Shown here piece after piece: positions 12,001 to 15,000 of a stretch of 33,994 nucleotides of DNA. The position numbers are program-made. Position 1 is the first letter of the stretch. Each line of letters opens with the position of its first letter. This stretch comes from a virus. Its lineage: Duplodnaviria > Heunggongvirae > Uroviricota > Caudoviricetes. The DNA lies in the IMG/VR virus record IMGVR_UViG_2802429242_000009, positions 1 to 33,994 of that record. One strand, given 5' to 3'.

Positions 12001-15000
12001 CTTGCTGCTGATCTTGCCGAGAAGAAAATGCAACTGGAAAACCAGCTCGCAATTGCCGCACCTAAAGTTGAGTTTGCCGATCGCGTTGGCGAGGCCAGCG
12101 GAATTTTGATTGGAAACTTTGCAAAGGTTGTTGGAATTGGTCCAAACAAACTGTTTGCGTGGATGCGCGATCACAAAATCCTTATTGCTTCAGGTTCCCG
12201 GCGCAATGTGCCAATGCAGGAATATATGGATCGCGGCTATTTCACAGTGAAAGAAACAGCGGTCAACACAAATCACGGGATACAGATATCGTTCACCACA
12301 AAAATCACCGGGCGTGGTCAACAGTGGCTGACCAGAAAGCTGCTCGATAACGGAATGCTGAAAGTAACAGGGGAGGCTGCTTAATGGCTAATCTACGCAA
12401 AGAAGCACGCGGCAGAGAATGCCAGGTACGTATTTACGGCGTATGCAATGGCAATCCTGAAACTACAGTTCTGGCACATTACCGGATGGCTGGAATTTGC
12501 GGAACGGGAATGAAGCCTGACGACCTGATCGGCGCATGGGCTTGTAGTGACTGCCACGCGGAGATCGACCGACGCACCCGGATTCTCGACAACAAAGACG
12601 CCAGACTTTACCACCTCGAAGGCGTGATCAGGACACAGGCGATACTGCTGAAGGAGGGGAAGATTAAGCCATGAACGAATATCAGTTTGTGCTTCCATAC
12701 CCGCCGTCGGTGAATACCTACTGGCGAAGACGGGAAAGTCAATACTACATCAGCGATAAAGGCCAGAAATACCGAAAAGACGTCCAGCAAATCATCCGCC
12801 AACTCAAGTTAGATATTTTCACCAAATCACGACTCCGCATCAAAGTCATCGCAGACGTTCCAGACTCCCGCCGCCGCGACCTCGATAACATCCTGAAAGG
12901 TTTACTCGACTCCCTTATCCACGCCGGATTTGCGGAAGACGACGAGCAATTCGATGACATTCGCGTAATTCGTGGCGTGAAAGTACCAGGCGGACGGCTT
13001 GGAATAAAAATCACCGAACTGGAGAACGCATGAACGCCACAATTCAAACGATACCAGAGCTTCTTATCCAGACACGAGGCAATCAGACCGAAGTGGCGAG
13101 GATGCTTTCCTGCGCAAGAGGAACAGTGCTCAAGTACAACCGAGACAGCAAAGGCGAGCGTCACGTAATAGTTAACGGCGTCCTGATGGTCACGCCAGGC
13201 AAAAAGGGAAGACGATGAGCATAAGAGAACTAAACCTCACCAAAGAACAGCACGAGTGGCTGAATGGCTGGCTTGAACTGTGGGGCGCATGGGTTTATTC
13301 AGGTCGTCTGGAAAAGCGCATGAGCAGCGTAATAGCGAAGTTCATGGAGAGCGTAGAGCCGGGAAGAATTATGACAAGGCCAATGTGTAATGATGATGAT
13401 GGAATGTTGATTTCTCAGGTCGTCGATTCCGTCATGTACATTGACAAGAAAGCCTTTGGAATCCTCCTCAGCTACTACGCTCATGGCTCTTCCAAGCACG
13501 CCATTGCATCTTACTATCATCGCGTCGCAAAACCTCGCAAGATGTTATGCCGTGGCGGCGGGCGCATTCAAAAACCATCGCTCGCAACCTGTCGACGGGA
13601 AGTTGACGAAATCCTCAATGCCTCGTTGTTTATGATTTACCCGGTTCTGGATAGTGCGTTTAAAAATCGGAAACGTGTAGAGAAAATTAAACATGTAGCA
13701 TAGAACGTGTTGACATCATTGAGCAAATGAGCAACACTATTGGCATAAGCTGCCGTTAGTGACTCTTAAGTTGCAACGGTGGCTTTTTTTATTTGGGTCA
13801 GTCGTATAAAGGTCATTACGGAAGGCTGTTAACCTTCTTATCGTGGTTCGAGTCCACGCTGTCCCGCCAAACATGCTGGTTTAGCTCTAATGGTAGAGCA
13901 GTCGCCTTGTAAGCGAATGGGTAGCGGTTCAAGTCCGTTAACCAGCACCATAACTGAGCCGTAGCCACTGGCTATCCTGAATTCATCAGTGATAGTTACG
14001 CTGCGGCCTTCTTTTTTCCCCTTCCCAATATAAGAACTACGCAATCCGTTACTGGCGGAGGCGTTGCTATGAAATCAATGGACAAAATCTCAACTGGCAT
14101 TGCCTACGGAACATCTGCTGGTAGTGCAGGATACTGGTTTTTGCAGTGGTTGGATCAGGTCAGTCCGTCACAGTGGGCAGCGATTGGAGTGCTTGGAAGC
14201 CTTGTGTTGGGTTTTCTCACTTATCTGACAAATCTGTATTTCAAAATCAGAGAAGACAGACGAAAGGCTGCGAGAGGTGAATAATGCCTCCATCATTACG
14301 AAAAGCCGTTGCTGCTGCTATTGGTGGCGGGGCTATTGCTATAGCATCTGCGTTAATCACTGGCCCAAGTGGTAACGATGGTCTGGAAGGCGTCAGCTAC
14401 ATACCATATAAAGATATCGTTGGTGTATGGACTGTATGTCACGGACACACCGGAAAAGACATCATTCCCGGTAAAACGTATACCGAAGCAGAATGCAAAG
14501 CCCTCCTGAATAAAGACCTTGCCACGGTCGCCAGACAAATTAACCCGTACATCAAAGTCGATATACCGGAAACAACGCGCGGCGCTCTTTACTCGTTCGT
14601 CTACAACGTGGGTGCTGGCAATTTCAGAACATCGACGCTTCTTCGCAAAATAAACCAGGGCGATATCAAAGGCGCATGTGACCAGCTACGTCGCTGGACA
14701 TACGCTGGCGGTAAGCAATGGAAAGGGCTGATGACCCGTCGTGATATTGAGCGTGAAGTCTGTTTGTGGGGGCAGCAATGAGCAGGTTAACCGCGATTAT
14801 CTCCGCTCTGGTTATCTGCATCATCGTCTGCCTGTCATGGGCTGTTAATCATTACCGTGATAACGCCATCGCCTACAAAGACCAGCGCGATAAAGCCACA
14901 TCTATCATCTCTGATATGCAGAAGCGTCAACGTGATGTAGCTGAACTCGATGCCAGATATACAAAGGAACTTGCTGATGCTAACGCGACTATCGAAAGTC

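Follow-up and report, generated by a model that had tools for sequence, protein, structure and literature searches.

The closest described counterpart of the locus analysed here is the tRNA pair of phage 21 (CPT_21_64/65, OL657228.1), which consists of a tRNA-Asn and a tRNA-Thr ('tRNAThr21', Govande et al. 2025) and lies between Q21, pR', the Q21-binding element (QBE) and tR' upstream and S21, R21 and Rz downstream. The phage 21 record annotates pR', the QBE, the terminator and both tRNAs. An Asn/Thr pair has been described for SfI, Sf6, 21 and their relatives (PMC3636060; PMC8022706; PMC9119081); it is annotated in SfI and BTP1, and present but unannotated in HK446. P22 itself was considered as a carrier but dropped, because the phage L paper reports no such tRNAs in P22 (PMC8022706). 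In Stx phage 933W, according to its GenBank annotation, ileZ-argN-argO likewise lie between Q, pR' and terminators and the late genes, with a predicted terminator after the tRNAs. However, these tRNAs are Ile, Arg and Arg, the record proposes a separate tRNA promoter (pT), and stx2AB separates them from the lysis genes. Phages P1 and P7, also temperate coliphages, encode Asn(GUU) and Thr(UGU) in the same order and adjacency under lytic-cycle (C1 operator) control. The Thr sequences are approximately 80% identical to that of the present locus, whereas the Asn sequence is distinct and the pair is not located in a Q-controlled leader. Phage T5 shares the two isoacceptors, but its sequences are unrelated, and it is a virulent phage with approximately 24 tRNAs under their own promoters. 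The pair at the present locus has gained relevance from recent work in which phage tRNAs were shown to stand in for host tRNAs that defence nucleases have cut.

The window, which is the whole 33,994-base stretch of viral DNA that was analysed, contains exactly two tRNAs according to ARAGORN: tRNA-Asn(gtt) at 13795-13869 (+) and tRNA-Thr(tgt) at 13875-13950 (+). A sequence-only reading had placed two hand-folded tRNAs with anticodons GTT and TGT at 13795-13950, and these coordinates and anticodons were reproduced exactly. Over 361 bp, the sequence shares 98.9% identity with phage 21; the tRNA-Asn is identical at 75 of 75 positions and the tRNA-Thr differs by one base. In contrast, the remainder of the window belongs to a P22-like (CUS-3/phiv205-1/Sf6-like) genome. 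The near-identical tRNAs, their position directly 3' of the tR' U-tract and a downstream hairpin common up to 14012 identify a late-leader cassette of the phage 21 type. The tRNA pair is thus an already known feature and not a new discovery. We give a probability of roughly 0.75 to the reading that these known tRNAs reside in a P22-like (CUS-3/Sf6-like) prophage together with the Q/pR'/S21-R21 module of phage 21, and that they are expressed late by Q-dependent read-through, the tRNA-Thr replacing cleaved host tRNA and the tRNA-Asn probably acting likewise. The features of the locus are as follows.

13215-13703, plus strand: Q21-type late antiterminator gene, 162 aa (open reading frame; homologue CPT_21_63 at the same place in phage 21)
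13710-13745, plus strand: late promoter pR' and Q21-binding element (coordinates taken over from OL657228.1, the curated record of phage 21)
13747-13794, plus strand: tR', intrinsic terminator of the short pR' transcript, a hairpin followed by UUUUUUUAUUU (annotated in phage 21, whose record cites PMID 1704887)
13795-13869, plus strand: tRNA-Asn(GUU) with encoded CCA, G73, a U4-U69 mismatch and the anticodon arm GAAGG-CUGUUAA-CCUUC (ARAGORN and Rfam)
13870-13874, plus strand: spacer AACAU, the 5-nt gap between tRNA-Asn and tRNA-Thr (sequence)
13875-13950, plus strand: tRNA-Thr(UGU) with encoded CCA, A73, G1-C72, C2-G71 and U14 in the D-loop (ARAGORN and Rfam)
13958-14016, plus strand: conserved hairpin that bounds the mobile tRNA module on the right; in the window it is terminator-like, as CUUCUUUUUU follows it (folding and homology boundary)
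14069-14284, plus strand: S21-type pinholin/antiholin, 71 aa, first late gene (open reading frame; homologue annotated in phage 21)
14284-14781, plus strand: SAR endolysin (open reading frame; homologue annotated in phage 21)
14766-15215, plus strand: Rz/Rz1 spanin genes (open reading frames; homologues annotated in phage 21)

Both tRNAs match the Rfam model RF00005 over its full length in cmscan, with 55.3 bits (E 1.8e-9) for tRNA-Asn and 63.2 bits (E 1.2e-11) for tRNA-Thr. As the gathering score is 29 bits, both are far beyond chance. The 3' CCA predicted for each by hand folding is encoded in the sequence. In E. coli, AsnRS recognizes the anticodon G34-U35-U36 and the discriminator G73, both of which are present in the tRNA-Asn (loop CUGUUAA and 3' end ...CUGUCCC-G-CCA). 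The ThrRS identity set comprises G1-C72, C2-G71, G35 and U36, and the tRNA-Thr carries all of these (GCUGGUU...AACCAGC-A-CCA, anticodon UGU), so that charging by the two host enzymes would be predicted from sequence. Minus-strand open reading frames that overlie the tRNAs (13816-13968 and 13838-14044) were treated as spurious.

Neither tRNA is canonical throughout. The acceptor stem of tRNA-Asn is not fully paired: the T-T mismatch noticed previously is real (U4-U69, flagged in the cmscan alignment), and a second mismatch, U13-U22, lies in the D-stem. In the tRNA-Thr, the anticodon arm reads GUCGC-CUUGUAA-GCGAA and G27 and A43 are mismatched at the bottom of its stem; this tRNA also lacks the universal U8-A14 tertiary pair, with U14 in the window and C14 in phage 21. 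Comparison of related loci indicates that U4-U69 and the non-A14 base are deviations fixed in the family in otherwise high-scoring tRNAs, and not signs of decay.

The conservation pattern bears directly on whether the tRNA-Asn is functional. It would be a poorly functional or non-functional hitch-hiker if it were crippled by U4-U69 and U13-U22 and kept by its linkage to the tRNA-Thr and the terminator junction. The two helix mismatches fit this explanation, as do an RNAfold z-score of only -1.7, the absence of an Asn codon bias (see below) and mutations at key positions in a few loci, namely an Ile(GAU) anticodon in L128 and U73 in L130 and L133. In contrast, the tRNA-Asn is identical in 107 of 121 related loci, and tRNA sequence variation is centred on D-loop position 20, which is normally variable. 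At position 4:69, 113 of the 122 loci that were sampled without bias have U-U and none has a Watson-Crick pair; a strongly diverged variant (L141, L142 and L145) has the same acceptor stem, mismatch included. The GUU anticodon and G73 are retained, and the Rfam score is nearly twice the threshold. Moreover, the tRNA-Asn persists where the tRNA-Thr is replaced by Gly(UCC) (7 loci) or missing (2 loci). The hitch-hiker explanation is accordingly judged improbable, and the suggestion that the tRNA-Asn may be partly degenerate is not supported. The tRNA-Thr also varies in a structure-preserving manner, with a compensatory change of G5-C68 to U5-A68 among the loci.

To locate the control elements, phage 21 coordinates (OL657228.1) were transferred with an offset of 12199, with no indels before 14011. 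The -35 element lies at 13710-13715, the QBE at 13718-13733, the -10 element at 13733-13738 and the transcription start at 13745; the pR' region has one substitution relative to phage 21, at 13742. The tR' hairpin (13747-13785) folds with -20.2 kcal/mol and z = -6.1, and its U-tract leads directly to G1 of the tRNA-Asn (junction TTTTTTTATTT|GGGTCAG). A simple promoter/terminator pattern scan of 13000-14500 returned no terminator, which is a false negative since the phage 21 tR' in this interval is curated; the assignment is therefore based on folding and the phage 21 annotation. The proposed position of the tRNAs, directly after a tR'-like terminator and ahead of the lysis genes (S21 pinholin at 14069), agrees with the curated annotation of phage 21.

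The tR' U-tract and the tRNA-Asn lie too close together for a promoter to fit between them, and a terminator adjoins the tRNA in every related locus. On this basis we infer that the tRNAs are expressed via Q antitermination, although the original wording that they are expressed "only" in this manner is too strong. Lambda biology predicts both terminator leak and read-through by N-like-modified polymerase from pR through Q, which would provide a minor supply of tRNA. The cassette, having no promoter of its own, would be transcribed when Q-modified RNA polymerase from pR' passes tR'. RNase P and 3' trimming would then excise both tRNAs, mature and ending in the encoded CCA, from the 5' end of the late RNA, and their release would coincide with the production of structural and lysis proteins.

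The hairpin downstream of the tRNAs (13958-14016) has a folding energy of -27.7 kcal/mol and z = -6.45. Homology ends at 14012 on the right in 94 loci, and 19 pairs of the hairpin are largely retained in related loci, three of them with compensatory changes. A U-run 3' of the hairpin occurs in only a subset of loci; the window and phage 21 have it, whereas most loci of the HK446/SfI/Sf6/BTP1 type do not. In HK446, SfI, Sf6, BTP1 and other P22-like or lambda-like phages, the tRNAs, spacer and hairpin are as in the window and always directly follow the late terminator. However, the upstream Q/tR' differs from that of the window (lambda-type in HK446, P22 gene-23 type in BTP1), and so does the downstream holin. 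The tRNA-Asn always adjoins ...TTTTTTATTT, which derives from at least three unrelated upstream terminators, and 122 of 130 Asn-Thr loci have AACAT or AATAT between the two tRNAs. These alignments show a mobile cassette composed of the terminator U-tract, tRNA-Asn, 5 nt, tRNA-Thr and the conserved hairpin, which recombines among lambdoid phages with differing Q genes, tR' and holins.

This architecture would also suit a role in RNA processing, in which the tRNAs serve mainly as RNase P/RNase E cleavage signals that cut the long late mRNA free of the pR' leader and terminator hairpin, the downstream hairpin shields the new 5' end of the lysis and structural mRNA, and decoding is secondary. The tRNAs invariably occupy the very 5' end of the late transcript, the hairpin travels with them whether or not the U-run is present, and 933W and phage L also show a terminator-tRNAs-terminator bracket. 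However, P22 and lambda produce late mRNA with no tRNA at this position (PMC8022706), and the anticodons are conserved and specific, which is needless for a pure processing signal. In addition, the activity of the tRNA-Thr depends on decoding, as rescue tRNAs with a mutated anticodon lose protection (PMC12445682). We regard processing as a very unlikely main role.

Codon usage provides a further test of what the tRNAs do. ACA accounts for 32% of phage Thr codons, whereas its share is 10% in a host sample of 41 E. coli genes (odds ratio 4.2, p = 2e-22), and its frequency per 1000 codons exceeds that of the host sample approximately 3.2-fold. A similar excess occurs in SfI (17.3% vs 7.1%; PMC3636060). 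The sequence-only reading had pointed to late genes and AT-rich morons for enrichment of ACA and of Asn codons: the ACA enrichment is present, but early genes are equally ACA-rich and no late-gene-specific excess was found. Asn codons show no bias; AAC makes up 56-61% in the phage and 63% in the host sample, with the same preferred codon.

The tRNAs could therefore merely aid the late decoding of phage-favoured codons and have no role in defence evasion. The ACA excess in both phages supports this explanation, as does the host's reliance on a single tRNA-Thr(UGU) gene, thrU (PMC12445682). Other tRNAs at this hotspot (Gly UCC, Arg UCU and Ile/Met CAU, and ileZ-argN-argO in 933W) also read rare A-ending codons, and coat genes prefer AAC, which is used in 24 of 25 Asn codons in phage L (PMC8022706) and 16 times against 3 AAT in the window. 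In contrast, there is no overall Asn codon shift, and the ACA excess is equal in early and late genes even though production of the tRNA is late. The phage exceeds the host more strongly in AGA and AGG than in ACA, yet no Arg tRNA is carried. OLD toxicity is rescued by the phage tRNA and not by over-expressed host thrU; the differences in sequence therefore matter functionally. Pure codon supplementation is thus unlikely, and it does not explain the tRNA-Asn.

The preferred reading, replacement of cleaved host tRNA, is best founded for the tRNA-Thr. Two studies of 2025-2026 found that this tRNA withstands P2-OLD and rescues cells or phages from it. The phage 21 tRNA-Thr guards against P2-OLD and is partly resistant to cleavage through alteration of the CNG motif and a shorter stem, either change alone being insufficient; a tRNA nearly identical to that of the window decodes ACA in vivo (PMC12445682). 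The Thr(UGU) of HK446 has the same sequence as that of phage 21 and allows OLD-sensitive phages to plate again (10.64898/2026.07.10.737580). The window tRNA-Thr is identical to these at 75 of 76 positions, the sole difference being T instead of C at 13888 (U14 vs C14, D-loop). Its anticodon arm is identical to that of tRNAThr21, with UCG at 28-30 (host CUG), CGA at 40-42 (host CAG) and G27-A43 unpaired. It thus carries the published features of a P2-OLD-resistant tRNA-Thr, the C14 allele having been the one tested, and is predicted to share the resistance. The Thr member of the cassette is among the few temperate-phage tRNAs with demonstrated anti-defence activity, shown against P2 Old for an allele that differs from that of the window at one D-loop base.

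P2 Old kills lambdoid-infected cells by cutting host tRNA-ThrU. According to the proposed mechanism, the phage tRNA would replace the destroyed molecule, its arm (C28U/G42A, shortened stem) conferring resistance to the Old Toprim nuclease, as shown for the variant with one different D-loop base. The replacement would decode ACA, which the phage uses approximately three times more than the host sample does, in a host that relies on single-copy thrU. Two observations temper this mechanism: the published functional tests of the tRNA-Thr all used plasmid expression, and HK446 evades OLD mainly by the protein Oad2, with the single tRNA-Thr unable to rescue lambda or delta-recB toxicity (10.64898/2026.07.10.737580). 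The window also encodes an Abc2 anti-RecBCD protein and Erf, a recombination locus of the kind that holds OLD triggers.

For the tRNA-Asn, the relevant comparison is PARIS. Its nuclease AriB attacks the tRNAs Lys(UUU), Thr(UGU) and Asn(GUU) at the site U36AAUC|N41, and changes that confer resistance map to positions 39 and 41; tRNA-Lys(UUU) is the prime target and host tRNA-Asn(GUU) a secondary one (PMC12409363). The window tRNAs read UAACCU (Asn) and UAAGCG (Thr) in the anticodon arm, where the host has UAAUCC and UAAUCA. In the tRNA-Asn, positions 28-30/40-42 are AAG/CUU instead of the host CGG/CCG, so that the CNG motif is altered on both strands. It thus lacks both nuclease motifs, namely UAAU at the cleavage site and the paired CNG. 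Neither window tRNA has U39 or the paired C28/G42 of the host tRNAs, a trait in common with the T5 tRNAs. However, the anticodon stem of the tRNA-Asn is a full 5 bp (G27-C43), whereas published OLD resistance also needed a shortened stem. Departures from the host at positions 39 and 41 could be taken as a specific sign of nuclease evasion, but they were given less weight: the anticodon stems differ along their entire length, and in P7/P1 the pair has host-like motifs, UAAUCA in Asn and CUG/CAG in Thr. The phage and host tRNAs are only approximately 60-70% identical overall, and such differences are expected from this divergence and are not independent evidence.

The anti-PARIS tRNA set (Belukhina et al. 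2025), in which a cleavage-resistant tRNA-Lys(UUU) accompanies variants of Thr(UGU) and Asn(GUU), is matched only in part: both window tRNAs lack U39, but neither is Lys, and the missing tRNA-Lys also sets the window apart from T5. Lacking tRNA-Lys(UUU), the cassette cannot by itself neutralize the characterised PARIS system. The tRNA-Asn probably has the same replacement role against OLD- or PARIS-type nucleases. We offer tentatively, as a proposal less likely than not, that Asn(GUU) and Thr(UGU) may act as one compact, horizontally mobile unit by which temperate enterobacterial phages counter OLD-family Toprim tRNases such as P2 Old, PARIS AriB and their relatives, and that this unit is turned on together with the late genes. 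In this proposal the tRNA-Asn would be nuclease-resistant and needed for escape; U4-U69 and Thr position 14 would be adaptive, spoiling nuclease recognition away from the anticodon arm; and the downstream hairpin would allow low-level tRNA from tR' read-through without leak into the lysis genes.

A preprint suggests for HK446 that such tRNAs make up for a host tRNA gene that is damaged when the prophage integrates (10.64898/2026.07.10.737580), and P22-like and SfI-like phages do enter thrW, a tRNA-Thr gene (PMC8022706; PMC3636060). However, thrW is rebuilt intact on integration (PMC8022706), and it encodes the isoacceptor with the anticodon CGU and not UGU. Being situated behind tR', the phage tRNAs would be largely silent in the lysogen, when they are needed, and the tRNA-Asn is left unexplained. 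This explanation is extremely improbable.

A scan of species-representative genomes gave five exact hits only, two of them in gut MAGs (Segatella and Collinsella). The MAG hits are most likely mis-binned enterobacterial phage contigs, and the scan is therefore uninformative on host range. The module is also found in SfI, Sf6, BTP1, HK446 and more than 140 viral contigs, and it is matched in 1020 of 5426 complete E. coli genomes, with the eight best hits annotated as tRNA-Thr | tRNA-Asn in RefSeq. Its presence in approximately one fifth of complete E. coli genomes means that the cassette may affect prophage induction or superinfection in strains that carry P2-like elements or PARIS.

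ARAGORN calls exactly two tRNA genes in the whole window, at the positions and with the anticodons assigned by the sequence-only reading. Neither gene has a sub-threshold score, as judged against the gathering score of the Rfam tRNA model (29 bits).

13795-13869, + strand: tRNA-Asn(gtt), Rfam tRNA model 55.3 bits, E = 1.8e-9
13875-13950, + strand: tRNA-Thr(tgt), Rfam tRNA model 63.2 bits, E = 1.2e-11

No Rfam family besides tRNA exceeds threshold across the whole window in the cmscan search. Both genes encode their CCA 3' ends, as had been claimed. The cmscan alignment places the T-T acceptor mismatch that had been seen in tRNA-Asn at U4-U69 and reveals a second, U13-U22, in the D-stem, while in tRNA-Thr the lowest position of the anticodon stem is mismatched (G27-A43). 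The initial observation is thus confirmed, and its interpretation is essentially right. On the opposite strand, two ORFs overlie the tRNAs (13816-13968, 50 aa, and 13838-14044, 68 aa, both − strand), and a 'hypothetical protein' is annotated across this stretch in two phage records, which is probably a mis-annotation.

The window genome is P22-like, with phiv205-1, CUS-3 and Sf6 as the nearest relatives, and is not phage 21 overall, but its late control and lysis module is of the phage 21 type. The 361 bp around the tRNAs share 98.9% identity with phage 21 (OL657228.1), whose curated record lists the Q antiterminator gene, the pR' -35 and -10 elements with a Q-binding element, transcription start and sigma-dependent pause element, the terminator, tRNA-Asn, tRNA-Thr, the S21 pinholin/antiholin, the SAR endolysin and the spanins. 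Transfer of the phage 21 coordinates with an offset of 12199 gives the two positions below and puts the start of tRNA-Asn at about +51 of the late transcript.

13745: late transcription start
13747-13794: terminator (tR')

For the terminator hairpin, the computed folding energy is −20.2 kcal/mol (z = −6.1). The U-tract of this terminator, UUUUUUUAUUU, leads straight into G1 of tRNA-Asn, in agreement with the proposed placement of the tRNAs immediately after a tR'-like terminator. Expression of the tRNAs under Q is inferred, and 'only' is probably too strict: lambda biology leads one to expect some leak through the terminator as well as early transcripts reading through from pR.

Compared across related loci, the homology boundaries show that the tRNAs travel as a mobile cassette. 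Its left edge lies inside terminator U-tracts of at least three unrelated kinds, lambda tR' in the lambdoid phage HK446 among them, and the junction is invariably ...TTTTTTATTT followed by GGGTCAG; on the right, 94 loci share a boundary at 14012. The cassette ends in a conserved hairpin, which carries no annotation in the curated phage 21 record.

13958-14007 (with the following U-run to 14016): conserved hairpin directly after tRNA-Thr, −27.7 kcal/mol, z = −6.45

The 19 pairs of this hairpin are mostly kept over 32 variants, with compensatory change at three. In the window and phage 21 it is followed by CUUCUUUUUU, a terminator-like U-run, so that a terminator-like element flanks the tRNAs on either side, whereas most P22-like loci lack the U-run and have CUUCUACAC in that place. 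A terminator is likewise predicted downstream of the late-leader tRNAs in phage L and 933W.

The tRNA pair has been described before and is very widespread. The SfI paper reports Asn(GUU) and Thr(UGU) genes in tandem after Q and mentions them in Sf6, ST64T, PS3 and phage 21 as well (PMC3636060); the records of SfI ('similar to phage 21') and BTP1 both annotate the pair. Two tRNA genes also appear in the phage 21 genome announcement (PMC9119081), and the phage L paper, which treats tRNAs located at the late operon's 5' end, says that P22 itself lacks them (PMC8022706). The region matches 93 phage records at megablast level, and 1020 out of 5426 complete E. coli genomes contain a match to the module; RefSeq annotates tRNA-Thr and tRNA-Asn at the eight best E. 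coli matches. Short contigs placed in Segatella copri and Collinsella MAGs (L151, L154) also match the Asn-Thr junction exactly; most probably these are contigs of enterobacterial phages that were binned wrongly.

Viral contigs were scanned twice, with the anchor at the Asn 3' end and at the Thr 5' end, and 144 loci were obtained. The architecture is Asn-Thr in 130 loci, Asn-Gly(UCC) in seven, Asn-Thr-Gly in one and Met(CAU)-Arg(UCU)-Gly(UCC)-Thr, with Thr(UGU), in one (L144); Asn only, Thr only, Ile(GAU)-Thr or no called tRNA account for six. Of 121 loci, 107 have an identical tRNA-Asn, and the commonest variants of this tRNA (6 loci) change D-loop position 20 only. The U4-U69 mismatch had raised the possibility that tRNA-Asn is partly degenerate, a suggestion that the Thr-anchored loci, which are unbiased with respect to tRNA-Asn, do not bear out. 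Position 4:69 is U-U in 113 of these 122 loci and U-C, U-G or G-U in the remainder, with no Watson-Crick pair among them. Three loci (L141, L142 and L145) encode a tRNA-Asn(GUU) with wholly different D, anticodon and T arms on the same acceptor stem, U4-U69 included. Because the mismatch recurs at this frequency and is retained in the diverged tRNA-Asn, it is, on sequence comparison, a fixed trait rather than decay. The anticodon stem of the diverged tRNA-Asn (28-30/40-42) is UCG/CGA, as in the phage 21 tRNA-Thr (tRNAThr21).

tRNA-Thr lacks the near-universal A14 (window 13888): U14, as in the window, occurs in 7 of 113 loci of the first scan, and C14 in phage 21, HK446 and most relatives. Five loci show a compensatory exchange of G5-C68 to U5-A68. 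In L012 and six other loci, the second tRNA closely copies host glyT (Gly-UCC), with A38G, or A38G plus G39U, in the anticodon loop, as well as U8C and a compensated change in the acceptor stem; the listed P2-OLD targets include Gly(UCC) (10.64898/2026.07.10.737580). The second tRNA of phage L (L157 481-552), annotated as Leu(UAA), has its acceptor stem and T arm in common with the Thr(UGU) gene, but its interior differs and is shorter. It resembles a mosaic built on the Thr gene or a derivative of that gene, not an ordinary tRNA-Leu.

Codon usage was compared between 35 window ORFs (9211 codons) and 41 annotated E. coli K-12 genes (14725 codons). Of the Thr codons, 32% are ACA in the phage and 10% in the host genes (odds ratio 4.2, p = 2e-22), so the suggested ACA enrichment holds, but equally in early (34–38%) and late (31%) genes; the suggested AAC/AAT enrichment does not, with AAC at 56–61% in the window ORFs and 63% in the host sample. 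AGA and AGG are the most over-represented phage codons and ACA ranks third, and the phage has no tRNA for AGA/AGG. On these figures, a codon-supply role would partly account for tRNA-Thr but not for tRNA-Asn. SfI likewise shows an ACA bias and no Asn bias (PMC3636060).

Counter-defence offers a further comparison. tRNAThr21 protects cells from P2-OLD and is partially resistant in vitro (Govande et al., PMC12445682), owing to C28U/G42A and a shortened anticodon stem. The Thr(UGU) of HK446 gives strong counter-defence (preprint 10.64898/2026.07.10.737580). In HK446 (NC_019714.1; L149 2098-2253), the same Asn-Thr cassette follows a lambda-type tR', with no tRNA annotated there in RefSeq and a Thr gene identical to that of phage 21; the preprint gives HK446 a single Thr(UGU) tRNA and overlooks the adjacent tRNA-Asn. 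The window tRNA-Thr has the anticodon arm of tRNAThr21 and differs solely by U14 in place of C14. The anticodon stem of the window tRNA-Asn is not shortened, and the paired CNG motif is absent from both window tRNAs.

The E. coli tRNAs cleaved by PARIS AriB at U36AAUC|N41 are Lys(UUU), Thr(UGU) and, to a lesser degree, Asn(GUU); resistance has been mapped to positions 39 and 41 (Belukhina et al. 2025), and the Lys, Thr and Asn tRNAs of T5 together neutralise PARIS (PMC12409363). The cassette has no tRNA-Lys. The window tRNAs read UAACCU (Asn) and UAAGCG (Thr) versus host UAAUCC and UAAUCA, a motif loss that is not independent evidence since phage and host tRNAs are ~60–70% identical overall. 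The adjacent Asn-Thr pair of P7/P1 (in the P1-like phage P7, L156 1425-1578) keeps the host-like UAAUCA and the CUG/CAG anticodon-arm motifs; the same isoacceptor pair thus recurs in an unrelated temperate coliphage.

The early-left operon of the window encodes Erf, SSB, the anti-RecBCD protein Abc2 and an N-like antiterminator.

1267-1563, − strand: Abc2
2540-3247, − strand: Erf
5574-5945, − strand: N-like antiterminator

This Abc2/Erf locus is of the type of recombination locus reported to hold P2 Old triggers.
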